A stretch of 64,000 bases of DNA, from positions 62,735-126,734 of the forward strand of contig JABJCP010000009.1 of assembly GCA_018668595.1 (NCBI GenBank), in the 5' to 3' direction. Positions 3,873-64,000 of this stretch are shown here, piece by piece. Made by a program: the position numbers and the translations under genes. Origin of the DNA: Candidatus Woesearchaeota archaeon (GTDB taxonomy: Archaea; Nanobdellota; Nanobdellia; Woesearchaeales; UBA11576). Under the pieces are notes generated by a model. That model was given only the letters and a program-made list of their open reading frames with translations, did not search any database and was not told the DNA's origin. Every line of letters begins with the position of its first letter. Position 1 is the stretch's first letter.

Positions 3873-4010
3873 AACTCTATAGAAATGGTAATCTATTTTA
3901 TAAAACTTTTGAACAACTTTTTTAAAACAACAATATGTCCTGTTTATGTGACTAAAAAACAAGATTTTACCAAAAATAATATATACTAATTATACTTCTA
4001 AATAATAAAA

Positions 4011-15183: not shown

Positions 15184-15211
15184 AATTTGAAAAATATTTG
15201 AAACTAATAAA

Positions 15212-18118: not shown

Positions 18119-18132
18119 ACTAAAAACAAAAA

Positions 18133-24189: not shown

Positions 24190-24238
24190 TGATTATTTAA
24201 TATTAAAAAATGATTAAAAAAAATTAAATAACTAAAAA

Positions 24239-44958: not shown

Positions 44959-45077
44959 ATCTAATTAAAATATTATCTAAATTAGTTATAATCCTGGCTA
45001 TGATTGTCTCTCTCACCGGAATATCTACAAATTTCTTTCAATAAACTATTTAAATCTTCTAAGTTCTTTAATGTTGT

Positions 45078-45506: not shown

Positions 45507-45540
45507 TTTTTATTTGTATTCTTATTTTATTTTTTCTATT

Positions 45541-46398: not shown

Positions 46399-46525
46399 CA
46401 GTTTATATATGTTATTATAAGTTTTTTATAAAATTGATATAATTCTCTTTTTTCTTTTTAAACAAATTGTTTTTTTCGGAAACTTTCCAGTATTTCATCA
46501 ATAAGCTTTTTTAAAAAAAACATAC

Positions 46526-47221: not shown

Positions 47222-47224
47222 ATA

Positions 47225-47854: not shown

Positions 47855-47909
47855 AAAAGTTAAACAAATTAAATTAAACAAATTAAATAATTGTGGATGG
47901 TGGTTTATT

Positions 47910-48170
47910 ATGGGAATTATTAGAAAAACTTTATTTTATGTTTCAATTATTAGCATGGCATCAGGTTTTGGTTATTGTGTTGGTAAAGGTGTTGGAGATA
48001 AACAGTGTCGAGAAGAAATTCATGAAGGGTATTTCACACATCCAGACTCAGGTCAGAAATATGAACTAAATGTTGAAGAAGGAACTTTAGAAAAATTAAG
48101 TGGAGAATATGAAAAACCTAAAGATTATATTGGTGAAAAAGGCCTAAAAGAAATTTTTGAAAGTAGGTAA
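47910..48170 (+). CDS. Small membrane protein
   Basis: The internal start MGIIRKTLFYVSIISMASGF follows a GGTGG SD. The track start (47754) overlaps the upstream gene. Confidence 0.35.
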   Translation: MGIIRKTLFYVSIISMASGFGYCVGKGVGDKQCREEIHEGYFTHPDSGQKYELNVEEGTLEKLSGEYEKPKDYIGEKGLKEIFESR

Positions 48171-48242
48171 TTGAGTTGTTAAGCACAGGGATAATTAAGT
48201 AATTAATTATTGGATTTTTTATTAAAATTATTAGGTGGTATT

Positions 48243-49520: not shown

Positions 49521-49563
49521 CTCACTAAGAATTTGATTTTTTTCATTTTGAGGATTGACTAGA

Positions 49564-50253
49564 ATGGATAAGATAAAAAACAAATTGAAACAGGATCTTG
49601 ATAAAAAAAATAGGAGACATAATAGAAAAGCAAAACGTATGTCGACCAATATTTTATCAAAATTAAAAACAACAATACCTCCTCATAGAGAAATAACTAA
49701 TAAAAGTTCAAGAAGAATTATTGATGCGCTTAAAGAACAGTATAAACAGTATAATCAAGCAATTCTTGATGTTGGAGAAATTAGGGACGAGTATCAATTG
49801 CTTGTTAATGATGAGAGTGTTAGAAATCCATTTATTGTAAGTTCTGGTCTTGTAGATATAATAAGAAATGAAACTAAAAATTTAAATTCAAATGAAAAAA
49901 AAGCAAGACGCATTTATGATTGGATTGAAAAAAACATAGAGTATGGTAAAGGATTAAAAAAATATAGTAATTCTGAAGAAGTAATTAATCAGCGTCGGGG
50001 TGTTTGTGGTGAAATGGCTTTTGTATACGTCACAATGGCAAGATGCATTGGTTTAAAGTCTAGTTATGTTAGTGTAAGAAGAGATTATAGTGGAAAAAAA
50101 GTTCATCATGCTTGTGCTGTTGTGAGAACAGAAAGAGGTAATATTTTTGTTGATCCTGCATATCACACATATGATGTGAAACACAAGGATTACGAAGTAC
50201 TTAATGATGTTGAAGTTTTAGAAAGATTTAATCAATGGAGGGGAAGAGAATAA
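49564..50253 (+). CDS. Transglutaminase-like cysteine protease domain protein with N-terminal motif MDKIKNKLKQ
   Basis: The catalytic Cys motif is RRGVCGEMAFVYVTMARCIGL. The His/Asp part is HHACAVVRTERGNIFVDPAYH. Confidence 0.55.
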   Translation: MDKIKNKLKQDLDKKNRRHNRKAKRMSTNILSKLKTTIPPHREITNKSSRRIIDALKEQYKQYNQAILDVGEIRDEYQLLVNDESVRNPFIVSSGLVDIIRNETKNLNSNEKKARRIYDWIEKNIEYGKGLKKYSNSEEVINQRRGVCGEMAFVYVTMARCIGLKSSYVSVRRDYSGKKVHHACAVVRTERGNIFVDPAYHTYDVKHKDYEVLNDVEVLERFNQWRGRE

Positions 50254-50254
50254 A

Positions 50255-50737
50255 ATGAATGATAAAATTAAAGAGCATCTAAAATATGTCAATTTCCAAA
50301 AAAATAAAGAAACATTGTCATCCTCTCTAGATAATAAAGTCGAAGTTGAAGATATTGTTGTTAAAAAAAGATCGTTAAAACCAGGATTATTATATATTCA
50401 AATTGGTCAGTATGGAACTTTTCATAGTAAAGGCAAATACGAAGCGGATAATAATTCTCATAACGGTCTCGAAGTACATGTTTCAGATGGGGTGCATGAT
50501 TATTATTTAGTTACGGGCGTTTGTGAAGAAAGTGCAAAAGAAAAAAACCAGGGTTGTCCAGGAGTTTGTAAAATTAACCTGCCTGGCGGACATTATGCGG
50601 TAGAGACATCTTATAACGGACCTTATAAAAAAAAGATAACTGTGGATGGAGATACAAAATTATATATTCACATTAAGAGCAAGCTTAGAAAAAAATCTGT
50701 AAAGAGAGTTGAGACAGGAGATAAGAAAAATGACTGA
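50255..50737 (+). CDS. Hypothetical protein with N-terminal motif MNDKIKEHLK
   Basis: A member of the N-motif family. Confidence 0.4.
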   Translation: MNDKIKEHLKYVNFQKNKETLSSSLDNKVEVEDIVVKKRSLKPGLLYIQIGQYGTFHSKGKYEADNNSHNGLEVHVSDGVHDYYLVTGVCEESAKEKNQGCPGVCKINLPGGHYAVETSYNGPYKKKITVDGDTKLYIHIKSKLRKKSVKRVETGDKKND

Positions 50738-51194
50738 TAAAATAAAAGAAAAATTAAAAAGTGAAAAACCACCAGAACCAATACCTACTTATCAAAAAAA
50801 AGATATTCAATATATCTCGACACCAATAGATAAAAAAACAGATTTAGGAAAACTTGAAGTTATGGTTTGCAAAGATTTTATGGATTGGACAGGAGATATA
50901 AAATCAAGTAAAACTGTTAGAGATTTTATGAAAAACTTTGCAAGTGTAAAACCTGGAATTGTCGTCGAGGCAAAAAGTACTCACAACGAAAAAGATGTTT
51001 ATTATTTAAACACTAGGTGGGATGGTCGTTCTAAAGTAAAAATCCCTACAGGCAATTATACAATTACTGCAATACTTGATGATAAATCTTATAGTAATCC
51101 TTCTAAGCACGCCACTGTTTACAAAGGAAAAAAAACAGAAGTAACTTTCACCATAAAAAAAGAAGACTTTCAAATCGAAAAAAAATATACCTAG
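50730..51194 (+). CDS. Hypothetical protein with N-terminal motif MTDKIKEKLK
   Basis: ATG 50730 follows a CAGGAGA SD. The track used an upstream TTG. Confidence 0.4.
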   Translation: MTDKIKEKLKSEKPPEPIPTYQKKDIQYISTPIDKKTDLGKLEVMVCKDFMDWTGDIKSSKTVRDFMKNFASVKPGIVVEAKSTHNEKDVYYLNTRWDGRSKVKIPTGNYTITAILDDKSYSNPSKHATVYKGKKTEVTFTIKKEDFQIEKKYT

Positions 51195-51197
51195 AAA

Positions 51198-51608
51198 ATG
51201 ACAGATCCAATTTTAGAAAAACTAAAAGGAAATATTATTCCTAGTGAAGAACCAGTATTAAAAGATCCTTACAAACCAAATCCTGCTAATGTAGCTGTTG
51301 AAGTAAATACTATTGAAACTAAAGTTGGAGAATTATTTAGTTTTGAAAATACAACGCCTGTACATTGCAAACAAACTTTAATTTATGAAAAAGGACTTTT
51401 CGAACTTGTTAATATTGATAAATCTCCTGTTTTAATTAATGGAGAACTTGTTTGTGGTCCTGGTCCCATCCACAAATACAATTTCAAAGCTAAACAACTT
51501 GGGAACTATTGTATAACTTGTGCTGATATCGACGGGACAAATGGTATGATATATAATTTAAATGTTTATGAAATTAATATTGCTAAAATAGATAAAAAGA
51601 GGGGTTAA
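51198..51608 (+). CDS. Hypothetical protein with N-terminal motif MTDPILEKLK
   Basis: A member of the N-motif family. Confidence 0.4.
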   Translation: MTDPILEKLKGNIIPSEEPVLKDPYKPNPANVAVEVNTIETKVGELFSFENTTPVHCKQTLIYEKGLFELVNIDKSPVLINGELVCGPGPIHKYNFKAKQLGNYCITCADIDGTNGMIYNLNVYEINIAKIDKKRG

Positions 51609-51720
51609 AATATTTTCTTTTCTCCGTCGTAAATTTAAAAAATCTGAGTTAAAGATTTCTAAAAAAGTTCTAAAAGATTTAGATTCAGAACTCAAAGAAT
51701 TAGATTCTGAATATGGCGAT

Positions 51721-52770
51721 ATGGATGCATATTGTAAATATAATGGAGTTTTAAAAAAAACAATAGGCATTATTGATAATTATTATGAAAATAATAAACA
51801 ACTAGAGTCTCGAGTTAAAGAGTTAGAAAAAAAATTAGACAGAAATAATGTTGCGTTAACATCGGATCAAGATCATGCAAATCCTACTAAGGTTCATTTA
51901 TCTACTAAATTATTTTTGATTTCTGCAGTAGTAGTAGTTTTATCCGCTGGAGGGTATGTAGCACATTCTGCATATAATGAGTTTTTAGAGTCGCAAGCAT
52001 CTGAGAAAACTTTAACAGAAGAATCAATTAATTTTAATTCAACAGAATATTCAACTTGGTTTTCGCAAATAAAAAATATTTTAGAACCAACTAATCTCCA
52101 AGACGAATCTTCTTCTAAAAATAAAACTAAGATTACTCCAACCTATACTTCTGATCGACCACTGCCGGTTCTTGTTAAACCCCCTGCAAAACCACTTGCT
52201 GTTCTTGAACAAGAAAACAATACAAAACCACTTAATGTTTCTGAAAAAGAAAACCATTCTCATAAAAATAAATCAACTAATAATTATCCAAAAAAGTTTG
52301 ATAAATCAGTTATCAAACAAAAACAATCCAAGACTAAAAAAATAGTGACTTATTCTTCTAACGAAAAACACATAGAATCTCTTATTGGTAGATTCTTTAA
52401 AGATGTTGAAAACAGGAATTTCAAAGCAACTAGTGATTATTTTTCTTGTGTGAGAAAGAGAGGTGCGGATTATAATTTTCCTGAACGGTTAGTTAAACGA
52501 TTTGATAATGAAGATGAACTTTATTTTTACAAAAGAGCAATTGTGCGCAATGTCGATGAAGAACATAATAGAAATCCTTATGTTAGTGGCAAAATTTACA
52601 ATGCTAAATTAAAAGTACAATTAACATCGTCAAATGATTCTTATTATCATGAATCTCTTGGTTGGATTTTTGCAAATTGTAAAAATCAACAAGAAAAACC
52701 AAAAGAAGGAGATTGTAAATTATTGGTTTACAAAAGTTACTTGACTAATTGTCCTGAGTTTACTTTTTAA
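51721..52770 (+). CDS. Hypothetical membrane-anchored protein
   Basis: It has one TM segment (LFLISAVVVVLSAGGYVAH). Confidence 0.35.
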   Translation: MDAYCKYNGVLKKTIGIIDNYYENNKQLESRVKELEKKLDRNNVALTSDQDHANPTKVHLSTKLFLISAVVVVLSAGGYVAHSAYNEFLESQASEKTLTEESINFNSTEYSTWFSQIKNILEPTNLQDESSSKNKTKITPTYTSDRPLPVLVKPPAKPLAVLEQENNTKPLNVSEKENHSHKNKSTNNYPKKFDKSVIKQKQSKTKKIVTYSSNEKHIESLIGRFFKDVENRNFKATSDYFSCVRKRGADYNFPERLVKRFDNEDELYFYKRAIVRNVDEEHNRNPYVSGKIYNAKLKVQLTSSNDSYYHESLGWIFANCKNQQEKPKEGDCKLLVYKSYLTNCPEFTF

Positions 52771-52790
52771 AAATTTAAGGAGATAAAAAA

Positions 52791-54095
52791 ATGAATATTC
52801 CAAAAACAATTTTAGAGGATTTTAAACTTTGTGGAGAACCTTTTATTATTCGCTCTAATAGAATTTATACTTTAGAGTCTGCTCAAGGAGTATTTGACAA
52901 CAATGATTTTATTCAGTTTCTCGACAAAAAATATCCTTTGGAGAAATCTTTGTTAATTTCCAATTTAGAAAATCGTTATTTTTCTTTAAATGAAAAATAC
53001 ATTAATAGTTATTTGCAACACATCATTAAAAGAGATTATGTGAGTAAAGTAGAATCATCTCACGCAGCGTTGATTTCGCAGCACAATATTTATGAGCAAA
53101 ATAAATTATCTTCTGTTGAACATTTTATCAGATCGCAGGTTGTTCCACAATACGCAGAACTTGCTAAAGATTTTTTCCAGGTTAATTCAGATGTTCCTTC
53201 AAAGCCTAAAAAAATAAAAACTGTTAGTTCTGAAACATTTGATCCTGATATGTTTCGTTTTCCAGATATTTCTGATCTCTATTCAGAAAAAAGCATTCTT
53301 GAATCTGTGATGGGTTCATTTGTTAATTCAGATTTTATTTTTACTCTTGGTGGAAGATGCTATGTTTCGTCTACTTATGATAATTCTCCTTCAGAATTAG
53401 TAAAAATAAACAATAAAGTTCATTCATTAAAATATTTAAGTTCACTTAGTAATCTTGATAAGAATTATAAAACTGCAATAATCAGAAAGTTAAATTCTGT
53501 TGCAAAAAATCATGGAGAACAACTTATTCCTAAGATTCAAAAAAATTTAGATCAAATAAAAAATCTTGAATCTGCATTTGAGGTTCAAGATAAAACTGAT
53601 TTTGGTTCAATTGGTTACCAAAAAGTTAATAATGATAAATATAGAATTTACATTAATATAGTCCCTTTTATTGCTAAAATGAGGGGTAAATTTTTTCATT
53701 TTATAAAAACTAAAGTTGGAACTGATTTTTTAATTAAAAATAATTCTTTAGAAATTTTATCTGCACCTGTAGTTATTGAAAAAGAGCGCTATTATCATCC
53801 TTTTGTTAGTTCTAGTAATAGTATGTGTTATGGAGGTAATAAACGTTGGAAATTTACAGGTGTTGAGTTTTGTAAAAAGTATCATTTAGACTCAAAAGAA
53901 AATAGGCAAATTGCAGGTTATAAAGTCGCAGCAGTTTTGGCTGAAGGGTGGAAAGTTATTCATAGAGGGTATTTGAAATCAAATTCTCCAGATACTTATC
54001 ATCCCATATCTCATTTTCAAAATCGTGAAGTTTCAAAGCAAGCGGCAGATAATTTAGTAAACAGTGGTTTGAAACTTTATGTTCAGGATGAGTGA
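52791..54095 (+). CDS. E2/UBC-like protein, paralog 1, with a long N-terminal domain
   Basis: The C-terminal motif YYHPFVSSSNSMCYGG has the same H-P-x-[VI]-x5-[IM]-C spacing as the UBC active site HPNI-x5-IC. It is paralogous to 58413..59702. Confidence 0.45.
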   Translation: MNIPKTILEDFKLCGEPFIIRSNRIYTLESAQGVFDNNDFIQFLDKKYPLEKSLLISNLENRYFSLNEKYINSYLQHIIKRDYVSKVESSHAALISQHNIYEQNKLSSVEHFIRSQVVPQYAELAKDFFQVNSDVPSKPKKIKTVSSETFDPDMFRFPDISDLYSEKSILESVMGSFVNSDFIFTLGGRCYVSSTYDNSPSELVKINNKVHSLKYLSSLSNLDKNYKTAIIRKLNSVAKNHGEQLIPKIQKNLDQIKNLESAFEVQDKTDFGSIGYQKVNNDKYRIYINIVPFIAKMRGKFFHFIKTKVGTDFLIKNNSLEILSAPVVIEKERYYHPFVSSSNSMCYGGNKRWKFTGVEFCKKYHLDSKENRQIAGYKVAAVLAEGWKVIHRGYLKSNSPDTYHPISHFQNREVSKQAADNLVNSGLKLYVQDE

Positions 54096-54206
54096 GACAG
54101 TCTTATTAATCTTAATCACATCGTCGGAACTCTTTCGGTTTTTTCTACAAAACTCTTATTAAATAAATCTTCATAAAATCATTTAATAAAACAGGGGGCT
54201 AACAAA

Positions 54207-54626
54207 ATGAGCTTACTATATTTAAGATTAGACGCATCTTTTGCAGAGACTACAACTCTTGTGAAAAGAATTCCAGAATCAAAGCTTGACGAAACAATAG
54301 AGTCTCTTATTTTGTACATGTGTGATACTTCTCCAGATGTTCTTAATCCAGAACTAATAGATCATGCGAATAGTTGTTATTCTTTTAAAGAAGTTAGGTT
54401 GGCACAAAATATAGAAGATAGTATTGAAACAATTCAAGAAGACAACCCCGCATTTGTTTCGCCTTTAAAATTATATTCTCTTGTTGGGGATATTCCTGTT
54501 ATTATGGCATCTCACAAAACATTAGCAAATAAGTCTCTTGCAGAATATAAAAATAAAATCATAACAACAAAAAAATTAGATAATGAATCTTACAAAATAA
54601 TTGATTTGATATTAAAAACTGTTTAA
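54207..54626 (+). CDS. Ubl-like small protein, divergent copy with no C-terminal GG
   Basis: MSLLYLRLDASF...YMCDTSPDVLNPEL...SCYSFKEV aligns with the other small paralogs. Confidence 0.4.
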   Translation: MSLLYLRLDASFAETTTLVKRIPESKLDETIESLILYMCDTSPDVLNPELIDHANSCYSFKEVRLAQNIEDSIETIQEDNPAFVSPLKLYSLVGDIPVIMASHKTLANKSLAEYKNKIITTKKLDNESYKIIDLILKTV

Positions 54627-54638
54627 GGTGGTTGGAAA

Positions 54639-55709
54639 ATGAATGAAATTAAAAAACTTGAAACTGTAATTGGCACAGAAGATGTTAAACTTAATGAAGA
54701 ATCTGTAATTGAAGATTTATTCGAACAGACAGGTAATTTTTTTAATGATGTGTTTATTAAAAGTAGGGTTGGGCCAAATACTAAATTAAATCATAAAAAA
54801 ATATCATCAAATAAATATTCTATTTCGATAGATTTAGAAGATTATATTCTTAAGAAGAATGATAGATATTTTAAGTTTGATAAAGTGACAATTGGCTTAG
54901 ATATTTTATTTGATAAAGAGTCAATTCAATTTTTAAGAGCTACTAAAATTAAATTAGGAAAAAAATATGATCATCCTTTTGTATTTAATGATAATTCTAT
55001 TTGTTATGGGGGTGGCTTAAGGTGGAGACTTGTTGGTGTTGATTTTGGAAAAAAATATTCTATTAAAACAGATGAAGAAAAAAATAATGCTGCTTGGAAA
55101 ACCTGTCTTGTTTTAACAGAAGGTGCTAAGGTGCTACACGAAGTACATGGTGATCAAGTCATACCTGTTAATAATTTAATGAATAGATTTTCTGATAGAG
55201 AAATATGTAAAAACAAAGCAGAATTATCTGGTTTAATTATTTATGGTGCTGAATCATCAACTAAAAAAACTCAGGAGTTACCTAACTCTAGTAATTTATA
55301 TATTAGATTGGACGGAGCTTTTGCAAACAAAGTTATTCTTGCAAAACGAGTTCCTGAAACAATTTTATCAGAGCCGTTGGATGAGGTTATTAGGTATATG
55401 TGTAATCCGACTTCGGATGAATTGAATGAAGAGCTCGAGGATAATCCTAGTAGTTGTTATACTGAACAAGAAGTTAGCACTGCGAAATTATTTCAAGAAG
55501 CATTTGATGAAGGAATTAATTCTCCGAATAAATCATTCGAGGTTCAGGCAATTAGTGTCGACGGAAATTCGCTGATTTATCTTGGCAGAGATGCTGATTT
55601 GAAAACTGTAACTCTCGATTCTAAACGTAGTGAAATTCTTATGGAAGAACATATCGATGAAGGAAATTATAATTTGATTGATCTTAAAGGAACTTATGTT
55701 AGTTGTTAA
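54639..55709 (+). CDS. Fusion protein with an E2/UBC-like core followed by a C-terminal Ubl-like domain
   Basis: The N-terminal part carries KYDHPFVFNDNSICYGGGLRWRLVGVDFGKKY. The C-terminal part (NLYIRLDGAFANKVILAKRVPET...) is about 80% identical to the free Ubl paralogs and ends ...DLKGTYVSC. Confidence 0.45.
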   Translation: MNEIKKLETVIGTEDVKLNEESVIEDLFEQTGNFFNDVFIKSRVGPNTKLNHKKISSNKYSISIDLEDYILKKNDRYFKFDKVTIGLDILFDKESIQFLRATKIKLGKKYDHPFVFNDNSICYGGGLRWRLVGVDFGKKYSIKTDEEKNNAAWKTCLVLTEGAKVLHEVHGDQVIPVNNLMNRFSDREICKNKAELSGLIIYGAESSTKKTQELPNSSNLYIRLDGAFANKVILAKRVPETILSEPLDEVIRYMCNPTSDELNEELEDNPSSCYTEQEVSTAKLFQEAFDEGINSPNKSFEVQAISVDGNSLIYLGRDADLKTVTLDSKRSEILMEEHIDEGNYNLIDLKGTYVSC

Positions 55710-55713
55710 TAAA

Positions 55714-56643
55714 ATGACTCGCGCTGCTATTTTAATCGGATCGTTGGAAAGTTTTCAAAAAGAGGAGTTTGCAGATCCTATGAAAGAATCTTTTGCAAAG
55801 ATTGGACTCGATTCAATTATTGTACCCTTAAATAAAATAGAAGAGTTAAATAAAGTAGATATTGTTTATACTCTGCCTCATAGTATTCAGGTTGATCTTT
55901 CGTTCTTAGATGAAAAAAATATTCCTATTATTAATTCGCATAGGTCTCATTCGCTTTCTAAAAATAAAATGGAAAGTAGTGATGTATTTATCAAAAATAA
56001 TATTCCAACTCCGGATACTATAACAACAGATTCTCAAGATGAATTAATTAATTTCATAAATAAACACAATAAAATTATTTTGAAGCAACCTGATATTTGT
56101 GCAGGCTATGGGCACATGATTGTTGAAAAAATCAATAACAATTATTTTGCATGGAATAATGATTCAAAAGGCGAGTTTGATTTTTCAAATCCTAATTTTG
56201 TTAAAGCAAATAAACGAGTTTTTGCACAGCCGTATTATGCACAAGATTTTATTTCTGATTTTAATCCTGATAATATTGTGTCTGTTTATAGAGCATATGT
56301 TATCGGAAATAATGTTCCTATGGCAACTGCAAGAGTTGGTAAAGATCAGCCCATTGTTAATGTTGCAAGGGGTGCACATTATGAATTTGTTACTCCTGAT
56401 AAAAAAATGAAAGAAATTGCATTAAAGACTGCAGATAGTATTGGTTTTGAAGTTGGAGTTGTTGATTTATTAAAAGATAAAAATCAAAATTATTTTGTTA
56501 TTGAATGCGATTGCGATGGTCTTACATTAGTTGTTTGTAGAAAGTTTAGAAAATTGAAAGAGTTTGAAGATAAATATGATTTTGATCAGCACATTGGCAG
56601 AAGATTAATTGAAATTGTAAATGGAGAATCTTATAGAACTTGA
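55714..56643 (+). CDS. ATP-grasp ligase (RimK-like)
   Basis: ILKQPDICAGYGHMIV fits vvKP..GS.G.GV. YRAYVIGNNVPMATARVGKDQPIVNVARGA fits the RimK D.Rv.vvG...a..R......tN...Gg pattern. EVGVVDLL...YFVIECD is also present. Confidence 0.55.
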   Translation: MTRAAILIGSLESFQKEEFADPMKESFAKIGLDSIIVPLNKIEELNKVDIVYTLPHSIQVDLSFLDEKNIPIINSHRSHSLSKNKMESSDVFIKNNIPTPDTITTDSQDELINFINKHNKIILKQPDICAGYGHMIVEKINNNYFAWNNDSKGEFDFSNPNFVKANKRVFAQPYYAQDFISDFNPDNIVSVYRAYVIGNNVPMATARVGKDQPIVNVARGAHYEFVTPDKKMKEIALKTADSIGFEVGVVDLLKDKNQNYFVIECDCDGLTLVVCRKFRKLKEFEDKYDFDQHIGRRLIEIVNGESYRT

Positions 56644-56650
56644 TTATTTC

Positions 56651-56779
56651 CTCGTCGGAACTCTTCCGCTTTTTAACATACAACCCTTATTAAATTCAAT
56701 ATTGCGTTTATATTTGTTTAGTGGGAGAACTTAAATTAAAAAGTAAAAATACATCTAAACTAGATTGAGATATACAAAA
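56651..56779 (+). promoter_or_regulatory. Conserved ~130-bp promoter/5'-leader module (copy 1) upstream of a Ubl gene, with three palindromes
   Basis: It contains CGGAActcTTCCG and TTTAGtgggagaaCtTAAA (imperfect in this copy), then CATCTAaacTAGATt immediately 5' of the start codon. Confidence 0.45.
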
Positions 56780-57205
56780 ATGAAAAATTTATACATTAGA
56801 TTAGACGGAGCTTTTGCAGATAAAGGCGTTCTTGCAAAAAAAGTTAGTGAGAATTTACTTTTAGAAACATTAGATACTGTTATTATGTGTATGTGTGACT
56901 CTACTCCTGATGAGTTTAATCATGAATTAGCTGAGAATCCTGGTAGTTGTTATACTGCGCAGGAAGTTAGAAAAGCCGAACTTATTGAAGAAGCACTAGA
57001 CGATGGACTTAATTATTGTATTACTGTTAAGGTTGATGCGCTTAGTGTAGGCGGAAATTCTTTAGTAGAACTTGGAAGAAATGGTGAACTAAGAACTGCT
57101 ACAATTGCCGATAAGAAAAATGAAATTCTTAGAAAACTTGATCTTGATGGTAAACAATATTATATTGTAGATCTTAAGATGTCTTATTTATGCCCTGGGG
57201 GTTAG
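56780..57205 (+). CDS. Ubl-like small protein ending in a free Gly-Gly (…YLCPGG*)
   Basis: It begins MKNLYIRLDGAFADKGVLAKKV and ends at stop TAG directly after GG. The start at 56780 was chosen by alignment with the paralogs; the track used an upstream TTG. Confidence 0.5.
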   Translation: MKNLYIRLDGAFADKGVLAKKVSENLLLETLDTVIMCMCDSTPDEFNHELAENPGSCYTAQEVRKAELIEEALDDGLNYCITVKVDALSVGGNSLVELGRNGELRTATIADKKNEILRKLDLDGKQYYIVDLKMSYLCPGG

Positions 57206-57216
57206 ATTCAAGTATC

Positions 57217-57350
57217 TCCTCGGAATCCTTCCGAATTTTAACACGTAATCATTATTAAATTCAATATTGATTTTATACTTATTTAGGGGGAAAACCTAAA
57301 TTATATGTAAAAAATAAAAATACATCTAAACTAGATGGATGCATATGAAA
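57217..57350 (+). promoter_or_regulatory. Promoter/5'-leader module, copy 2
   Basis: It contains CGGAAtccTTCCG, TTTAGGgggaaaaCCTAAA and CATCTAaacTAGATG (57323..57337). Confidence 0.45.
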
Positions 57351-57803
57351 ATGGAAAATTTATACATTAGATTAGACGGAACATTTGCAGATAAAGTTGT
57401 TTTTGCAAAACGAGTTTCTGAAACAATTTTATCAGAGCCGTTGGATGAGGTTATTAGGTATATGTGTGATTCTTCTCCTGATGATTTAAATAAAGAAATT
57501 GAAATAGATTATTGTTTTGATATGAATCAAGATTACATCAAAGACAGTGGTTATACAGCGCAGGAAGTTAATAATGCAAATATTATTGAACATTTTTTGA
57601 ATCAAGATATTAGATCGGACAATATTTGTGCAGAAATTCATGCTATTAGTAAGGATAAAAATTCGCTTGTTTATTTAGGTAAAACAAACAAGCTTAAAAA
57701 TGTTAATCTTGCTTCAAAAAAAAAATATTTGTTACAAAAAGAAAAAATAGGTGGCGAAAATTATTTCATTATTGACCTTAAGTTTAATTTGCTTTGCATG
57801 TAG
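57351..57803 (+). CDS. Ubl-like small protein with a divergent C-terminus (…LLCM*)
   Basis: It begins MENLYIRLDGTFADKVVFAKRVSETILSEPLDEVIRYMCD. The start was aligned to the paralog starts. Confidence 0.45.
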   Translation: MENLYIRLDGTFADKVVFAKRVSETILSEPLDEVIRYMCDSSPDDLNKEIEIDYCFDMNQDYIKDSGYTAQEVNNANIIEHFLNQDIRSDNICAEIHAISKDKNSLVYLGKTNKLKNVNLASKKKYLLQKEKIGGENYFIIDLKFNLLCM

Positions 57804-57842
57804 ATTGCAAGGTTTAGTATACTGCAGTTTTATTACTCTCTC

Positions 57843-57976
57843 CTCGGAACTCTTCCGCTTTTTAACACACAATCCTTATTAAATTCAATATAACATTTAT
57901 ACTTATTTAGGGGGAGAACCTAAATTATATGTAAAATAAGTAAAAATACATCTAGATTAGATGGAGGTATATAAAA
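57843..57976 (+). promoter_or_regulatory. Promoter/5'-leader module, copy 3
   Basis: It contains CGGAActcTTCCG, TTTAGGgggagaaCCTAAA and CATCTAgatTAGATG (57949..57963), followed by a GGAGG SD. Confidence 0.45.
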
Positions 57977-58411
57977 ATGGGAAATCTATACGTTAGATTG
58001 GATGGAGCTTTTGCAAACAAAGTTGTTCTTGCAAAAAAAGTTCCTGATACAAAGTTATCAGAACCGCTCGAAGATGTTATTAGGTATATGTGTGATCCAA
58101 CTCCGGACGCATTAAATGAAGCGCTTGCAGATAATCCTGGTAGTTGTTATACTGCGCAAGAAGTTAGCAATGCATCTTTGATTGAAGAAGCTTTAGAAGA
58201 TGGGCTTAATAGTGAGAATTCTTCGTTTGAAGTTCAAGCAGTTAGTCTTGACGGTAATTCAATGGTTTATCTTGGCAAGGATAATGAATTAAGAAGTGCA
58301 AATATAGCATCTAAGCAAAACGATATTCTTAGAGACGAAAATTTTGATGGAGAGGTTTACAAGCTTGTAGATCTTAAAGGAGTTTATGTTGGAGTTGGTG
58401 GTAAACTTTAA
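57977..58411 (+). CDS. Ubl-like small protein ending GG-KL (…VGVGGKL*), a precursor-like C-terminus
   Basis: It begins MGNLYVRLDGAFANKVVLAKKVPDTKLSEPLEDVIRYMCDPTPD. A GGAGG SD lies upstream. Confidence 0.5.
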   Translation: MGNLYVRLDGAFANKVVLAKKVPDTKLSEPLEDVIRYMCDPTPDALNEALADNPGSCYTAQEVSNASLIEEALEDGLNSENSSFEVQAVSLDGNSMVYLGKDNELRSANIASKQNDILRDENFDGEVYKLVDLKGVYVGVGGKL

Positions 58412-58412
58412 A

Positions 58413-59702
58413 ATGCAAAATTTAAATACTTTTTTAAATAGTTTTAAGCTCGCTGGAGAACCTTTTTTTATTAGAGGTGACAGGCTCTATACTTTAGAGC
58501 TTTCAAATGGTTTTTGTAACAGCGAGCAGTTTTTATCTTTAATGGAGCGAAAATATCCTCTAGAAAGATCAGTTGATATTAGCAATCTGGAGTATACCTC
58601 TTTTCTCAAACAAAAAAATTCAATTTTAAATTTTATGGAAAAACACATTAGAAATAATTTTATCAGTAAACTTGAAAGTTCAGAAAAAAAGGTAATTCGT
58701 GCAAGTGGTTTGTATGAACAAAATAGACTTTCTTCTATTGAACGATTTATTCGTGAAAAAATAATTCCTGAATATGCTGAAGTTGCAAAGCGTTTTTTAG
58801 ATGATAAATCAATAAAAACACCTAACCTTATAAAAAAAGTTTCAAAGGTTAAAGCAGAATCTTTTGATGTTAATAGTTTTGTTTGGCCAGGTATTGAAGA
58901 CTTAAAATCAGATATTAGTAGGTTGGATAAAATAATTGAAAAAGAAGGCGTTTTAATTGTTGGTGGTCGCTGTTATTCTGCATCTCGTTCAAAATCAAAA
59001 TCTTTATCTGATTATGTTAAAGCTGGAAGTTCTTTTTATAGTTTAGATTATATGTGTTGTGTTGATGAATTGGATAAAATTTACAAACAAGAATTAGTTA
59101 AGTTTTTTCAAGATACTTCAAATAAGCAGGGTAATATTTTAGTTCCTTTAATTAAGCAAAATAACCAAAAATTATCTAACTTAACAGATGCTGTTAATAA
59201 ATCTGTTGATCAAAAATTTGGAAATATTGGTTATAAGTGTGTTAGTGAACATAAGTATCAAATTTTTCTTAAGTTTAATCCGTTTATTATAAAAAAAGAT
59301 GATCAATACTATAAATTTCCTGAATTAAAATTAGGAACTGATTTAATTATCAAGAACAATATGCTTGAAATTGTAGCAGCACCTCAAGTTTTGGGTTCTA
59401 AACCATATCTTCATCCTTTTGTTTGGTCTGATAAACGCATTTGTTATTCTGGTGATACTAAACGTTGGCATTTTATAGGTATCGATTTTGGAAAAAAATA
59501 TCCTATAAATTCTGAACAAAATCAAAATGATGTTGCTTGGAAAGTCGCATTAGCTCTTTCAGAGGGTTTTAAGGTTATTCATAAAGGATATATTGGAAAT
59601 AAAATTATTCCTGTTAATAACTTACATTCTAGTTGTAAGTCTCGCAAAATTTCTTATTCAGAAATATCGCCCTCAAAATTAAAGGTGTATAACAATGATT
59701 AA
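58413..59702 (+). CDS. E2/UBC-like protein, paralog 2
   Basis: It carries YLHPFVWSDKRICYSGDTKRWHFIGIDFGKKY. The N-terminus MQNLNTFLNSFKLAGEPFFIRGDRLYTLE aligns with 52791 (MNIPKTILEDFKLCGEPFIIRSNRIYTLE). Confidence 0.45.
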   Translation: MQNLNTFLNSFKLAGEPFFIRGDRLYTLELSNGFCNSEQFLSLMERKYPLERSVDISNLEYTSFLKQKNSILNFMEKHIRNNFISKLESSEKKVIRASGLYEQNRLSSIERFIREKIIPEYAEVAKRFLDDKSIKTPNLIKKVSKVKAESFDVNSFVWPGIEDLKSDISRLDKIIEKEGVLIVGGRCYSASRSKSKSLSDYVKAGSSFYSLDYMCCVDELDKIYKQELVKFFQDTSNKQGNILVPLIKQNNQKLSNLTDAVNKSVDQKFGNIGYKCVSEHKYQIFLKFNPFIIKKDDQYYKFPELKLGTDLIIKNNMLEIVAAPQVLGSKPYLHPFVWSDKRICYSGDTKRWHFIGIDFGKKYPINSEQNQNDVAWKVALALSEGFKVIHKGYIGNKIIPVNNLHSSCKSRKISYSEISPSKLKVYNND

Positions 59703-60969
59703 TAAAAACAATAACAAATATGGTTCATCAAACAATAGTATAGATGAAGAAATTCAAAAACTTATAGGACCTATTAGAATTACTCGTGAAGCATTAGAAA
59801 AAGGTAAATTAATTGCAAAGCGTACTTGTGATATTGCAAAAAAATTTAATCTTGGAACTTTAGAAATTTATTTGTATAATCTTAATCCTATTGATAAACA
59901 AGAAAAAGGCGATTATGCTATTAGAGATTTGTACATTGCACATGAGCAAACTGTTTCTGCTATTAATTGCGAGGTTGGTGCTCAAGGTCAAATAATGTCC
60001 CGAGATATAGCTTATCAAGAGCATAATATGTATACTATTGGTTGGTCTCATTCTCATGGAGATCTAGGGGTTTTTGTTTCAGGAACTGATGATAATAATA
60101 CTAAAAATGTTGTCAAATTTTTAGGAATAGCGTCAGGGATTGATTTATTGGAAGAGTGTGGTTCAATTAATTATGAGAATATGGAAAACAAAATTACTTT
60201 TTTAGATGGATCGCAGTATTTTATTAGTGCAGAAACATCAAAAGATAAAGAGCTTGTTGAAGGTTTATTTGAAACTATTTTAAAATCAAATCCGTTAACA
60301 ATTCATACAAAGAAAAAAAAGTTTTTTAATTGGACTCCTAGTTTTGTTTTTAATTCTAAAGGAGATTTTCATCCTTTTATGGCATATTATTTAGATAGAA
60401 ATATGATGTTGGTTGATGGTTGTTCTTATGAAATTTTGGAGGAGAATAATGGCATATGTCTTGATCCGCAAGTTATTGATGAGGAAATAATTACTCGAGT
60501 TAGAGAACTCAACTTCATTAAAAATAAAAAAACGCCAGAAACTAAAAAAACTCAATCAAAATTGTACAATTTATTTTTTAAAAAAGCTGAAGAATTTGAC
60601 AAGAATCATGATAAACTCAAAGAGTATATTAAAAATAAACAGAATTCTAACCGTACTTCTAAACGAGAGTGGAAAAAAGAATCTGGTTTATCTAAAAACA
60701 TTCAAGAATCTGTTGTTGAAATGGGTGATCTTTTAGATCATTGTGAAAATGAGTTAGGGACAAATATTAGTGATGATGAACTTGCTAAAATAAAACAAGT
60801 TTATCTTGCAAGGCAGCAGCAGATTAAAGAAGCTCAACCATTAATAGAACAAAGAATTGATTCACTTTGTAATGAAGCTAACTCTCGTAATTATGTTAAG
60901 AACCACGGGTTGATTGATATGTATGAATCTATTTTAAAAAATTCTTTAGGAGGAGATATTGATGCCTAA
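59695..60969 (+). CDS. JAMM/JAB (MPN+) metallopeptidase
   Basis: The full JAMM motif E…HSHGDLGVFVSGTD (HxHx7Sx2D) is present. Confidence 0.6.
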   Translation: MINKNNNKYGSSNNSIDEEIQKLIGPIRITREALEKGKLIAKRTCDIAKKFNLGTLEIYLYNLNPIDKQEKGDYAIRDLYIAHEQTVSAINCEVGAQGQIMSRDIAYQEHNMYTIGWSHSHGDLGVFVSGTDDNNTKNVVKFLGIASGIDLLEECGSINYENMENKITFLDGSQYFISAETSKDKELVEGLFETILKSNPLTIHTKKKKFFNWTPSFVFNSKGDFHPFMAYYLDRNMMLVDGCSYEILEENNGICLDPQVIDEEIITRVRELNFIKNKKTPETKKTQSKLYNLFFKKAEEFDKNHDKLKEYIKNKQNSNRTSKREWKKESGLSKNIQESVVEMGDLLDHCENELGTNISDDELAKIKQVYLARQQQIKEAQPLIEQRIDSLCNEANSRNYVKNHGLIDMYESILKNSLGGDIDA

Positions 60970-62509
60970 TGAAGTTATTGCAGATATTAATAATCGTAAT
61001 CATTTAGCATGGAGTATTGATAAATCTATTAATATGGATTATTCAAAAAAATTAGCTGATTTAGAAAAAAATAAAACTGGTTTAAGTCAAGGGGTTTACG
61101 ATCAAAAGAAATTAGGTTTATTAGAAGAAAAAAAAGCAGAGTTAAGCAAGCTAGGAGAAGAAAGAATAAATTTATTAAATAATTTAAAAATAATGGTTCT
61201 TGGTTCAGGACCTCTTGCGCAATTTGTTAGCGGAGGGTTAATGGGTTTAGGTATTGGAACTATTTATGTCGTCGGTAATGAGATTGTTTCACGAAATGAT
61301 AGTTATGATTTTTTAGTAACTAAAGAATCAAATCTTGGAAAATCAAAAGTAGACGAAATTGTGGCTAGGATGAACGAAATTAATGATTATAATAATTTTG
61401 TTCCTGTTTTTTCAAGATTTAGTTCTGCTTTAACTAATTCATTTTATCCTTCGGATATGATTATTGATGCGACAAACTCGTCTGTTTCAAAAAATAAAGT
61501 TTTGAGATATTGTATTGATAACAAGATTCCTTTAATTTCTGCATCATCTAGTTTTAGAAATTCAAGAGTTTCTTCTTACAAACCAAACTCTGCACCTATT
61601 AGACTTAAAGATTCAGTTAATTTGGAAGCAGTTATTCACCAAGAACTTGATGGTCTTTCTCAAGACATTGTGAGTTCTGGAATTATTGCAGGAATTATTT
61701 TAGAGGAAGTTAGAAAGCAAAAGTTTTCTATGTCAAAAACAGATTTTCCTCTTAAAAATTTTCAAGTTGTAAATTATAATCCTTATTCTAAAACAAGAAA
61801 TAATAAGTTGAGAGATCTACCCAAATGTGCTAAAACTTATGCAAATAAACGTGTTTTAGTCGCAGGAGCAGGAGCGCTAGGTAATTTTGTTGCAATGGAA
61901 CTTGCTTTGTTAGGGGTTGGACAATTGGATATTTTAGATATGGATTCTGTTGAGGTTTCAAATCTTAATCGTCAAATTAATTTTGATAAGTCAAATATTG
62001 GTAAGGAATACAAAAAAGCAACAGTTCTTTTTGATCGTTTAAAAAAATTAAATCCATCTATTAATGGAACTGGAATAGTTGCAAAACTTGAAATGACTTC
62101 GGATAATTTGATTAAAGAAGGCAACTATGATGTTTTACTTGGTTGTTTTGATAATAAGATTGCAAGACAAACTTTAGATCATTTTGCGGAAAAATATAAT
62201 ATTCCTTATGTTGACGGAGGTTGTTCGACAAACGCAGGCCAGGTTGTTTCATTTATTCCTGGTTATAACCAGAAGGTCACTGAACAGGTTAATTTTCCAG
62301 ATCCTTCTAATAGTGGTAATCAGGTAGGTTGTGCTATTGTAGCTCAAGCTAATCCTAGTATTATTACTTCAAATGCAATTATTGGCAGTGCAACTGTTGC
62401 AGAGGCTTTAAAGATTTTATCAGGGCAAAATTATGGGGATGTTGGAGGTTCTTTTAACTATCGTAGTAATTCTCCTGACCGTATTTGGTTGGATCCTTAT
62501 GTTCCTTAA
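60959..62509 (+). CDS. E1-like (ThiF/MoeB/UBA) activating enzyme with tandem Rossmann domains (N-terminal degenerate, C-terminal active)
   Basis: The N-terminal domain reads IMVLGSGPLAQFV with no SNLNRQ. The C-terminal domain reads RVLVAGAGALGNFVAMELALLGVGQLDILDMDSVEVSNLNRQ. GGCSTNAGQV lies downstream. Confidence 0.65.
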   Translation: MMPNEVIADINNRNHLAWSIDKSINMDYSKKLADLEKNKTGLSQGVYDQKKLGLLEEKKAELSKLGEERINLLNNLKIMVLGSGPLAQFVSGGLMGLGIGTIYVVGNEIVSRNDSYDFLVTKESNLGKSKVDEIVARMNEINDYNNFVPVFSRFSSALTNSFYPSDMIIDATNSSVSKNKVLRYCIDNKIPLISASSSFRNSRVSSYKPNSAPIRLKDSVNLEAVIHQELDGLSQDIVSSGIIAGIILEEVRKQKFSMSKTDFPLKNFQVVNYNPYSKTRNNKLRDLPKCAKTYANKRVLVAGAGALGNFVAMELALLGVGQLDILDMDSVEVSNLNRQINFDKSNIGKEYKKATVLFDRLKKLNPSINGTGIVAKLEMTSDNLIKEGNYDVLLGCFDNKIARQTLDHFAEKYNIPYVDGGCSTNAGQVVSFIPGYNQKVTEQVNFPDPSNSGNQVGCAIVAQANPSIITSNAIIGSATVAEALKILSGQNYGDVGGSFNYRSNSPDRIWLDPYVP

Positions 62510-62522
62510 GTAGGTGTGTTTT

Positions 62523-64000
62523 ATGGCGAAGAAAAAAAAAAATAATCTAAAACAGGGAAAAAAAGTAGGAAAAAATAGAACGGAATTGTCTAAAAAAAAA
62601 AGAAAGCCATTTGAAAATAAATTAGATAAACTCAATAAACCTTTTTCAGAAGACAGTTCTTCGCAAGAACTTTCGTTACACAAAGATTATTCTAAACTAG
62701 ATTGGTTTTCTTTAAATGAGAAATTTGAATATGAACTTAATAAACTAGATATAAACCCTATTAATATGGAATTATTTAATTATGTTAGATCTGATTTATA
62801 TTGTGTTAAATCTGAATTAATAAATAGGAATTTAAGCAGTAGAGTAATTCTTGATAGAAATTATGATTTGGAATTGTTAATTAAAAAAGAGATTAAGCCA
62901 AAAGTTACTATTGATATTACTGATGATTCAATTGAAAAAAGCAAATTAATTGCAAAAAAACTCGTCGATCTTGGTAAAGCAGCAGGTTTAGGAAAGAATG
63001 AGATATATTTGGCAGGAGTTTGTGATAAATCCAACTATGATAAAGATGATTTTATTGTTGAGGATATTTATATTGTTCCTGATCAGGTTTGCTCTAATGA
63101 GCGATGCGAATTTCCAAGTACGGGCAAGTTTAAAATGCTTGATGAGTTGGATAAATTAAAAAAAGTTCCGATTATGTGGATTCATTCTCATTGTGATGAT
63201 ACTTATTTTTCTCCTGACGATAAAGATAATTTATTTAATCTGGTCAGATTTGATGGTTTTCTAAAAGAGTTGTCTTATGAATTATTGGATGAAAAATCGA
63301 GTTTAATTTTCAAATGTTATCCTGCAATTGTTGTTTCAGGAATAAATGATGCTGAAACTTTTGGAGTGCAGTTATTAAGAAAACCAAAAATTTATGACAA
63401 AGATTCTAAAAAAATATCTGAGATTAAAGAAAAATCCACAGTATTATTGACTGGGGCAGATATTTCAGTAAACATTCATAAGTTGGATGTTAAAATTAGT
63501 TTAGATGAAATTTTAATTCAAAAAGAATTGGTAAATAAAGTTACAATTAAAAGATATAATTCTATTCATAAATTATCTGATTATTATGATTGCAATCTAA
63601 AATTAATAAATTCTGCTGAACCAAAATATGTCGAAGAGCCGTCTACAAAAATTAAGGATAGTTTGGCTAATAGAGATGGGCAAAGAGCTCAACAAAAAGC
63701 ACAAGAAGAAAAAGTAAAAACATCAGGCATTCTTGGTAGATTAAAATCTGAACCTGTTGATGAAATTTCTGATTCAAGTTCATATGAACATACTGTTGCA
63801 ATTATTAAAAAAGACTTGCCAATATGTAGTGCTAATTCAGATTTAGTTAATGAAATTAAAAAACCTCGGGATGAATATTATGTTGGAGATTCATTTAAAA
63901 TTACGCATATTGATGTGAATAGGGGTTCTTTTGTTTTTAATAATAAAGAGTATTTCCTAAAATTCGATAATGAAAATATTAAACCATTTTTAGATTTATT
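62523..64000 (+). CDS. Second JAB/JAMM-like protein, 3'-truncated by the window edge and absent from the ORF track; paralogous to 59695 in its N-terminal region
   Basis: Manual translation gives MAKKKKNNLKQG... with EIYLAGVCDKSNYDKDDFIVEDIYIVPDQ and WIHSHCDDTYFSPDD (HxH-x6-S-x2-D). It shares IT.e..EK.KLIAK...LG..EIYL with the first JAB. An AGGTG SD lies upstream. Confidence 0.5.
   Translation, partial: MAKKKKNNLKQGKKVGKNRTELSKKKRKPFENKLDKLNKPFSEDSSSQELSLHKDYSKLDWFSLNEKFEYELNKLDINPINMELFNYVRSDLYCVKSELINRNLSSRVILDRNYDLELLIKKEIKPKVTIDITDDSIEKSKLIAKKLVDLGKAAGLGKNEIYLAGVCDKSNYDKDDFIVEDIYIVPDQVCSNERCEFPSTGKFKMLDELDKLKKVPIMWIHSHCDDTYFSPDDKDNLFNLVRFDGFLKELSYELLDEKSSLIFKCYPAIVVSGINDAETFGVQLLRKPKIYDKDSKKISEIKEKSTVLLTGADISVNIHKLDVKISLDEILIQKELVNKVTIKRYNSIHKLSDYYDCNLKLINSAEPKYVEEPSTKIKDSLANRDGQRAQQKAQEEKVKTSGILGRLKSEPVDEISDSSSYEHTVAIIKKDLPICSANSDLVNEIKKPRDEYYVGDSFKITHIDVNRGSFVFNNKEYFLKFDNENIKPFLDL

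Follow-up and report, generated by a model that had tools for sequence, protein, structure and literature searches.

The window analysed here is a 64,000-nt stretch from Candidatus Woesearchaeota (DPANN), and all coordinates below are window positions. At 54207-58411 it holds five paralogous ubiquitin-like (Ubl) sequences, of which two end in Gly-Gly and three end at, or one codon before, the position where Gly-Gly would stand. We consider it rather likely, judging from sequence comparison, that this region is the modifier part of a ubiquitin-like conjugation locus of ~11 kb. Every gene in 52791-64000 lies on the plus strand in the list of open reading frames (ORFs), and in the NCBI records the locus proteins are entered as hypothetical (Candidatus Woesearchaeota archaeon, locus tags HOK51_02095-02130), the longest contig measuring 677 kb. 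Ubl copy 5, E2-like paralogue c, the JAMM peptidase JAB1 and the E1-like enzyme are encoded consecutively by overlapping or abutting genes, and the gene for a RimK-type ligase lies directly 3' of, and overlaps, the gene for an E2-like::Ubl fusion whose Ubl part ends in VSC. The features are as follows (aa, amino acids).

52791..54095, plus strand: E2-like paralogue a, 434 aa; ~230-aa N-terminal domain and a C-terminal core like that of ubiquitin-conjugating enzymes (UBC), with YYHPFVSSSNSMCYGG; no Pfam match
54207..54626, plus strand: Ubl-like copy 1, 139 aa; C-terminus ...LILKTV
54639..55709, plus strand: E2-like::Ubl fusion, 356 aa; E2-like core at ~54777-55253 with motif YDHPFVFNDNSICYGG, a 16-aa linker, then Ubl copy 2
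~55287-55706, plus strand: Ubl-like copy 2 (within the fusion); end ...GTYVSC, then TAA TAA at the Gly-Gly position
55696..56643, plus strand: RimK-family ATP-grasp ligase, 315 aa by gene callers; the TTG-started ORF begins at 55678
56644..56779, plus strand: intergenic cassette 1 of 3, ~140 nt; hairpin CGGAACTCTTCCG with T-run, TTTATA box, GGAGGT/TGAGAT before ATG
56780..57205, plus strand: Ubl-like copy 3, 141 aa; end ...SYLCPGG-stop; own promoter/5' untranslated region cassette; downstream hairpin with T-run
57206-57344 and 57804-57976, plus strand: intergenic cassettes 2 and 3, repeats of cassette 1
57345..57803, plus strand: Ubl-like copy 4, 152 aa; end ...NLLCM, stop at the Gly-Gly position; insertion of 10 aa; Gly in place of the second Cys; cassette of its own and a terminator-like hairpin at 57845-57857
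57977..58411, plus strand: Ubl-like copy 5, 144 aa; end ...VGVGG-KL; putative precursor form; first gene of the core operon
58386..59702, plus strand: E2-like paralogue c, 438 aa (429 aa if started from 58413); motif YLHPFVWSDKRICYSG
59695..60969, plus strand: JAMM/MPN+ peptidase 1 (JAB1), 424 aa; motif HSHGDLGVFVSGTD, that is HxHx7SxxD
60962..62509, plus strand: E1-like activating enzyme, 515 aa; two ThiF-type domains
62523..64000 (cut by the window end), plus strand: JAMM-like peptidase 2 (JAB2), 507 aa in full contigs; motif WIHSHCDDTYFSPDD

Five Ubl-like units and their C-termini

A first-pass annotation, made from the DNA sequence alone, had described five paralogous Ubl-like genes in this region. 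Five paralogous sequences do lie there, but copy 2 occupies residues ~217-356 of a 356-aa ORF, and the first ~205 residues of that ORF form a paralogue of the domain with which E2-like proteins a and c (434 and 438 aa) end; the Ubl set is four genes and one fused domain, not five genes. A multiple alignment of the five copies establishes full-length paralogy, spanning the whole unit (~140 aa) with 25 invariant columns that are kept in all five. Copy 1 is 34-37% identical to the others, while copies 2-5 are 48-62% identical among themselves. The Cys pair (YMCD...GSCYT) that the annotation ascribed to every copy is present in copies 1, 2, 3 and 5, but copy 4 reads DSGYT for GSCYT, and the related proteins P0007-P0010 lack both Cys residues.

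The family is both real and very rare. A profile of the five copies run against 1.84 billion representative proteins matches only nine (E-values of 1e-30 to 1e-66 for the window's own copies and ~1e-5 for distant relatives), and word-indexed protein searches return almost only self matches. Matches from a PDB profile search with the Ubl alignment are at chance level, and the Ubl-like proteins have no PHROG match. A structure model of copy 1, of moderate confidence, finds almost exclusively beta-grasp (ubiquitin-like) folds among its structural matches. The modelled order is two strands, a helix, a poorly modelled insertion of ~45 residues, and the remaining strands with a short helix, and with moderate confidence we read the unit as one beta-grasp domain carrying that insertion. 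At the end of helix 1 stands the first Cys (YMC); the insertion, which contains the second Cys, comes just after the invariant D44 and N47, and Y58 is invariant too. Confidence in the models is limited because the input to structure prediction was an alignment of only five rows, MAFFT having misplaced the E2-only and Ubl-only rows on the fusion.

The C-termini are as heterogeneous as originally described (KTV, VSC, (C)PGG, LCM and GGKL for copies 1 to 5), and only two of the five end in Gly-Gly: copy 3, in which the stop follows PGG directly, and copy 5, which reads GG-KL. The tails of copies 1, 2 and 4 had been called Cys-containing or unrelated, and they do read so, but their ends are not arbitrary: they are in register with Gly-Gly. 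In copies 2 to 5 a conserved DLK is followed by six residues; the next codons are those of Gly-Gly in copies 3 and 5, and TAA TAA or TAG in copies 2 and 4. Copy 1 ends ...AAA ACT GTT TAA GGT GGT TGG AAA ATG, so that its stop falls one codon before the Gly-Gly position and is followed (54624-54641) by in-frame codons for Gly-Gly-Trp-Lys and, in the same frame, by the ATG of the fusion ORF. The survival of GGT GGT beyond this stop could be because these codons serve as a ribosome-binding site. The arrangement of copy 1, TAA, GGWK and fusion looks like what is left of a disrupted Ubl-GG-E2 fusion, or else like a ribosome-binding site that has been kept, and in copy 5, where GGTGGT lies ~10 nt before the start of E2-like c, the Gly-Gly codons may double as the ribosome-binding site of that gene.

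Seven of the nine profile-matched proteins come from other organisms, with ends AGGGR, DVGGNVNGY, ITGNY, HSMCC, SSSGLS, EIGGCGKF and DVGGNY. Gly-Gly with a short extension is usual among them (GGGR, GGNY, GGNVNGY, GGCGKF), which agrees with the initial view of copy 5 (GG plus KL) as a precursor to be processed by a JAB peptidase. Within the family a Gly(-Gly) end, with or without a short extension, is found in copies 3 and 5 and in P0004, P0005, P0009 and P0010, and not in copies 1, 2 and 4 or in P0006 and P0007. Cys residues recur near the tails (LCPGG, VSC, LCM, MCC, GGCGKF).

Assembly error as the source of these termini is ruled out. Seven contigs of separate assemblies, including L002, L003, L004, L014 and L015, match the window with 100% identity over 1.9-17 kb; they include the NCBI metagenome-assembled genome GCA_018671815.1 and several ENA assemblies, and gene calling finds this set of genes on a 636-kb JGI contig as well. 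An alternative genetic code or mis-called stops were also considered and rejected: long ORFs are intact under translation table 11, stops are TAA in 41 cases, TGA in 13 and TAG in 6, and the Ubl copies end in TAA or TAG. Over 44207-64000 there are zero nucleotide differences from L002, L003, L004, L014 and L015, reflecting either a remarkably clonal population or shared read sets. Only a handful of amino-acid variants are seen, in 90% clusters. The copy 4 strain variants P0020-P0022 keep LLCM (with one or two changed residues in P0021 and P0022), variant P0014 has Thr for Ser beside the second Cys, and fusion variant P0002, on a 1429-bp ENA contig, has Asn for His in the HPF motif (KKYDNPFV).

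Putative conjugation partners and related loci

E2-like proteins a and c are 40% identical, and both share with the N-terminal part of the fusion the pattern Y-x-HPF-V-x6-C-Y-x3-4-RW. Seven of eight members of this family have Y-x-HPF(V/T)-x6-C; in the eighth, on contig L008, the motif is HPN and the Cys is replaced by Gly. The alignment conserves HPF upstream and RW downstream of the Cys, and has no conserved Glu or His after it. A profile of the eight sequences run against the PDB gives 18 weak matches, 14 of them to UBC enzymes and all of those on the HPN..Cys segment. Against five UBC sequences, hhalign aligns 32 ungapped columns (Prob 75.6%, P 2.4e-5) with P-x-V, Y-H-P, I-C and W matched, and the His-to-Cys spacing of 10, as read off this alignment, is that of UbcH5. 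The top Foldseek match is Cap2 (prob 0.77). These are single lines of evidence, each weak, and together with gene context they make an E2-like function likely. Matches of the N-terminal region to interferon-gamma in the PDB profile search were set aside as compositional noise. That ~230-residue domain (FKLxGEPFxIRxxRxYTLE...; 52791-53480 in E2-like a and 58386-59080 in E2-like c) is conserved in L001, L005, L008, L009 and L010, has no match to a known family, and is a candidate substrate-recognition module.

The E1-like protein matches Pfam ThiF (2.6e-59) in two stretches, with the NLNRQ motif only in the second (SNLNRQ). Its best PDB matches are to the SUMO E1 UBA2 (5.6e-17), then ThiF, Uba1 and MoeB. 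Only ~27 residues lie between the segments aligned to UBA2 110-156 and 383-409, where the Cys-domain insertion of UBA2 takes up ~225; given this and the two ThiF domains, the protein is a compact single-chain enzyme pairing an inactive with an active adenylation domain (IAD-AAD), the Cys-domain insertion being apparently absent. The Cys of its VGCAIV may stand where UBA2 has PGC173TIR.

JAB1 has the complete HxHx7SxxD motif with an AHEQ upstream of it. It matches Pfam Prok-JAB at 2.4e-4 (21.4 bits, below the cut-off of 25), and in the PDB it matches the Rpn11-like protein of Caldiarchaeum best (6fjv, E 0.0019). JAB2 carries HSHCDDTYFSPDD, one residue shorter than the JAB1 motif, and is a paralogue of JAB1 (34% identity over 147 aa, E 1e-16). 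The ligase matches Pfam RimK (1.9e-12, 47.7 bits against a cut-off of 21) and NCBIfam rimK_fam (1.1e-21), falls below the curated NCBIfam cut-offs for RimK, LysX, MptN and CofF alike (81/350, 77.5/143, 67/276 and 40/300, respectively), and has no PDB match at E 0.001 by phmmer.

Comparison with homologous loci, which the first-pass annotation had proposed, reveals that the cassette of Ubl-like, E2-like, E1 and JAB genes recurs in distant relatives. Contigs L010 and L011 have the order Ubl-like, E2-like, E1, JAB; in L001, L005, L008 and L009 a Ubl-like gene is followed by an E2-like gene, and in L012 by a JAB gene. L001 also carries a RimK homologue, 49.5% identical to the ligase, between its E2-like and Ubl-like genes. 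The organism of SRR22387952 has undergone a separate duplication that yields P0004 (..AGGGR) and P0006, whose end (..ITGNY) falls immediately before the position of the Gly run. On L008, from the same sample as L001, the E2-like gene at 3-971, which has the canonical HPN and Gly at the position of the catalytic Cys, lies directly upstream of P0006, and its product would be a variant of the ubiquitin E2 variant (UEV) type. P0006 likewise shares its reading frame with the E2-like gene that follows it, and there are no Gly codons in between. A neighbour-joining tree, indicative given the shortness of the sequences, places copies 2-5 of the window in one clade and P0004 with P0006 in another; these separate clades suggest that Gly-less paralogues arose at least twice. 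Searches of species-representative genomes with the E2-like alignment or with PurA found no relatives, and a metagenome scan found again only the L005 contig.

The rest of the window holds chromosomal genes (GAPDH, PurA, a pyruvate-kinase-like gene, TrmB/Lrp regulators), and its GC content is flat at 28-32%. A phage or mobile origin was considered and rejected: there is no megablast phage match, no PHROG match and no viral-contig relative, and the GC content gives no step. Among anti-phage defence models the locus proteins have no match apart from generic E1 (Cap2) matches of the ThiF domain. Five genes upstream of the Ubl locus, at 49555-50253 (plus strand), is a gene for a transglutaminase-like protein (Cys-protease fold), one of nine consecutive genes (46526-52770), the rest of which gave no Pfam match or lay outside the scan. 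Kinase genes occupy 12490-26455 (plus strand) and also 40360-41472. Five of them are tandem paralogues for giant proteins of 738-1096 aa that all carry a eukaryote-type Ser/Thr kinase domain at the C-terminal end, one with HEAT repeats in its N-terminal part; a sixth kinase has a DnaJ-like N-terminus, and the set is a large investment for a small DPANN genome. Also present, and unusual in an archaeon, are a response-regulator-GGDEF diguanylate cyclase (2823-3962, minus strand) and an MshEN-domain protein of the c-di-GMP-binding type (4543-5112, plus strand).

Selection and possible roles of the Gly-less copies

The ratio of nonsynonymous to synonymous substitution rates (dN/dS), estimated pairwise by the Nei-Gojobori method, is below 1 in all cases: pairs within copies 2-5 give 0.35-0.46, and pairs that include copy 1 give 0.65-0.78. 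With dS at 0.6-1.1, near saturation, these ratios are rough. Taken by thirds of the gene, dN/dS is ~0.3-0.5 for most pairs. The 3' third gives 0.29-0.47 among copies 2-5, the pair of copies 4 and 5 not being computable (the proportion of synonymous differences, pS, is saturated), and some pairs that involve copy 1 reach 1 or more in the middle and 3' segments. That the copies without Gly-Gly might be pseudogenes, the outcome that would have overturned the initial reading, is not borne out by these values or by the intact ORFs, although the case of copy 1 is less clear.

Over the first ~45 codons most pairs among copies 2-5 share 80-89% nucleotide identity, compared with 51-64% in the 3' half. 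For example, the 5' parts of copy 2 (55293-55432) and copy 4 (57357-57496) are 87% identical over 140 nt, while the genes are ~65% identical overall, and comparisons of copies 2, 4 and 5 give a reduced dS in the 5' third. The 5' region has probably been homogenised by gene conversion rather than by selection alone. Upstream regions are conserved as well: the three ~140-nt cassettes have a mean column identity of 81%, and each contains a hairpin with T-run, a TTTATA box and a Shine-Dalgarno-like GGAGGT or variant, with terminator-like sites at 56656-56668 and 57845-57857. Because such a cassette precedes each of copies 3, 4 and 5, these look like separately started transcription units, with copy 5 at the head of the core operon.

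From paralogy, C-termini, domain families, synteny with relatives and dN/dS values below 1, we infer a Bil-type or eukaryote-type Ubl cascade with two conjugatable tags and three retained non-conjugatable variants, and regard this as the likelier account of the locus. The core operon would comprise Ubl copy 5, E2-like c, a JAMM peptidase, the two-domain E1 and the second JAMM protein. The peptidase would trim KL off copy 5 and so expose its Gly-Gly, while copy 3 would be made already mature and need no trimming. E1 would adenylate the Gly-Gly end, after which the Ubl would move to the conserved Cys of an E2-like protein (HPF-x7-C; Cys353 in E2-like c) and then to target amines, in a modification that the JAMM enzymes could reverse. 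Lineage-specific duplication would have given three E2-like proteins and five Ubl units. Since copies 1, 2 (fused) and 4 end at or one codon before Gly-Gly, they should not be activatable in the canonical way, and they appear to be kept under purifying selection. They may act without conjugation through a C-terminus of their own, as non-covalent partners or competitors at E1, E2 or JAMM surfaces (natural delta-GG forms), or as acceptors to which the conjugatable copies are attached. The first-pass annotation took the five units for a diversified set rather than simple redundancy. Values of dN/dS below 1, stops at the Gly-Gly position and an independent non-Gly paralogue in a relative favour that view, and the sequence data do not tell decoy, regulator, acceptor and alternatively activated modifier apart.

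A number of observations weigh against the cascade as proposed. The 12 Ubl family members have no relevant match in Pfam, NCBIfam or PADLOC, the Ubl profile shows no similarity to ubiquitin when compared with ubiquitin, NEDD8 and SUMO1 by hhalign (P 0.44), and the beta-grasp call depends on a moderate-confidence model from a shallow alignment. On the E2 side, Pfam UQ_con matches one of eight members at E 0.18 and Prok-E2 none, the fusion model has an overall pLDDT (predicted local distance difference test) of 48, and no Foldseek match lies below E 0.001; structure models here are of low to moderate confidence. The locus has no Pfam match to a RING or zinc finger, and no E3 or target was identified. 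The near-saturated dS and the high dN/dS of copy 1 count on the same side. Through gene conversion, a copy no longer functional could still look intact in its 5' third, and the RimK-type ligase encoded in the operon of the fused copy suggests that a different chemistry may act at C-termini.

The last two points open onto rival explanations of the Gly-less copies. They could be by-products of tandem duplication that are being lost, non-functional or neutral, so that only copies 3 and 5 matter. Loss of Gly-Gly normally abolishes activation of a Ubl, the expansion is lineage-specific, and copy 1, the most divergent, has its stop directly before remnant Gly-Gly codons; gene conversion could mask the decay. 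However, no ORF has a frameshift or internal stop, all 25 family-invariant residues are kept in each copy, and dN/dS remains low among copies 2-5 in the unconverted 3' part, for every pair that can be computed. The stops fall exactly at the Gly-Gly boundary rather than at random, as happens again in P0006, copy 4 keeps its own promoter/terminator cassette, and copy 2 is built into a longer protein with an intact E2-like motif. Decay of these copies is unlikely, though less clearly so for copy 1. Alternatively, they may be conjugatable by a route independent of E1, in which the RimK-type ligase forms a C-terminal acyl-phosphate and then extends the tail or ligates it to an amine. RimK adds amino acids to the tail of ribosomal protein S6, and LysX ligates LysW to an amine; RimK, LysX, MptN and CofF, which are the closest named relatives of the ligase family, all ligate onto carboxylates, RimK and LysX onto those of protein C-termini. 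Its gene overlaps that of the fusion, its homologue in L001 sits between E2-like and Ubl-like genes in the sample that also holds the non-Gly P0006, and L010 and L011, which have no visible non-Gly/Gly pairs, have no RimK in 14-20 kb. One Ubl family would then use two activation chemistries, E1/E2 for the copies with Gly-Gly and a RimK-type ligase for those without. The ligase would rebuild or lengthen their C-terminus post-translationally or join them straight to targets, a Pup/LysW-like form of tagging that bypasses E1 and uses a ubiquitin fold. We think neither the route nor the pairing of chemistries probable: known RimK and LysX substrates have a terminal Glu, where the Gly-less copies have Cys, Met or Val; ligase and non-Gly paralogue are seen together in two lineages that are sisters, and one evolutionary event may account for both cases; the ligase scores below every curated NCBIfam cut-off and finds nothing in the PDB; and its substrate could instead be a metabolite or the acidic tails with which E2-like proteins end (..YVQDE, ..YNND). 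A milder version, also possible, makes the Gly-less copies evolved regulators of the cascade, with the E2-Ubl fusion as a permanent mimic of charged E2~Ubl.

A broader objection is that none of the copies is a modifier, and that they are sulfur carriers, or precursor or scaffold proteins of a ThiF/ATP-grasp/JAB pathway for a small molecule or peptide, the HPF..C protein being no E2. ThiF/MoeB-type E1s with beta-grasp partners ending in Gly-Gly and JAMM trimming serve sulfur transfer too (QbsE, for instance, ends GG-CF), Cys recurs near the tails in this family, and the evidence for an E2 fold is modest. On the other hand, the HPF..C segment aligns gap-free to the active-site segment of UBC enzymes, the E1 is a fused pair of inactive and active domains as in conjugating E1s, and Pfam scans find no sulfurtransferase, rhodanese or cofactor-biosynthesis gene in the locus. 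Chiefly because the E2-like partner is conserved, invariably adjoining the Ubl-like gene in relatives, we judge this explanation very unlikely.

Comparison with known systems

Type II BilABCD (CEHH/6C) operons have the gene order Ubl, E2, deubiquitinase (DUB), E1, and in BilA as many as 9 residues come after the conserved Gly and are cleaved off by BilC (PMC10557695). The order of copy 5, E2-like c, JAB1 and E1 is the same, likewise with no E3 gene, although L010 and L011 differ (Ubl, E2, E1, JAB). Also shared are a single beta-grasp Ubl with conserved Gly and a short extension of the kind removed by a JAB peptidase, and the IAD-AAD feature of the E1. In contrast to Bil, the Ubl and E2 here have no detectable sequence similarity to their counterparts, the E2 has HPF/HPN-x7-C and no CEHH (Cys, Glu, His, His), the E1 apparently lacks an inserted Cys domain, and the host is archaeal (DPANN). 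The locus adds three E2 paralogues, five Ubl units (three Gly-less), an E2-Ubl fusion, a second JAB protein and a RimK-type ligase, and no CapH/CapP or other defence-type regulators are seen at it.

Operons of Caldiarchaeum subterraneum and Asgard archaea encode Ub, E1, E2, a small RING E3 and Rpn11 (PMC3082918, PMC5654768, PMC6043591). They resemble the Woesearchaeota locus in being archaeal, in an HPN-type E2 motif, in the Rpn11-like best match of JAB1 and in a Ubl precursor with a C-terminal extension. They differ in that the Ubl here is unlike ubiquitin in sequence and has the ~45-residue insertion, no RING E3 is found, the E2-like proteins have a large N-terminal domain, and the Ubl and E2 genes are multiplied. 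Type I Bub (6E/DUF6527) operons combine Ubl-E2 fusions with a JAB peptidase and a DUF6527 serine protease; their E1 and E2 have no catalytic Cys, and Ser/Tyr oxyesters are used (PMC11601596). Here too a Ubl and an E2 occur in one polypeptide, with JAB in the operon, and the run of copy 1, stop, GG-WK and E2-like ORF in a single frame resembles a broken Ubl-GG-E2 fusion. However, the intact fusion is E2 then Ubl, its Ubl has no Gly cleavage site, the E2-like Cys is conserved, and no locus protein matches DUF6527. The locus would resemble the type II Bil, Bub and Caldiarchaeum-type systems in its working but belongs to none of them, because defining features are missing in each case (CEHH and, apparently, the Cys-domain insertion; DUF6527; ubiquitin-like sequence and RING).

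Ubiquitin folds without Gly-Gly are familiar from Hub1/UBL5, integral UBL domains and laboratory delta-GG ubiquitin, which act, where this is known, by non-covalent binding. The Gly-less copies share that state, but the conjugatable paralogues from which they recently diverged are encoded in the same cluster of operons, and their truncation falls exactly at the Gly-Gly position. The ligase, for its part, belongs to the ATP-grasp family (above the Pfam RimK cut-off), whose members RimK and LysX modify protein C-termini, but it lies below the NCBIfam cut-offs, and no Glu-ended substrate is evident among the Ubl copies. We know of no described link between the RimK family and an E1/E2/JAB locus. 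A full-text literature search returned no paper that joins RimK, ATP-grasp, ubiquitin-like and JAB, and a search of titles and abstracts returned none linking Woesearchaeota with a ubiquitin-like system.

Outside eukaryotes, ubiquitin-type E1-E2-DUB cascades have been described in a few archaea (Caldiarchaeum, Asgard) and in bacterial defence operons (CBASS type II, Bil, Bub). The locus would add a very rare family in a genome-reduced DPANN host, with Ubl and E2 families that public models do not recognise, eukaryote-like UBC active-site spacing, a single-chain two-domain E1, an E2-Ubl fusion, exact delta-GG paralogues and a RimK-type ligase. Even if the copies without Gly-Gly should prove inert, it adds to the prokaryotic repertoire of ubiquitination-like systems. 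Paralogues that differ mainly in the presence of Gly-Gly constitute a natural experiment on a non-conjugatable ubiquitin fold, and the RimK-type ligase offers a testable link between two separate ways of tagging at protein C-termini. If the Gly-less copies are indeed regulators or alternatively activated tags, they would represent a new design principle for Ubl systems.

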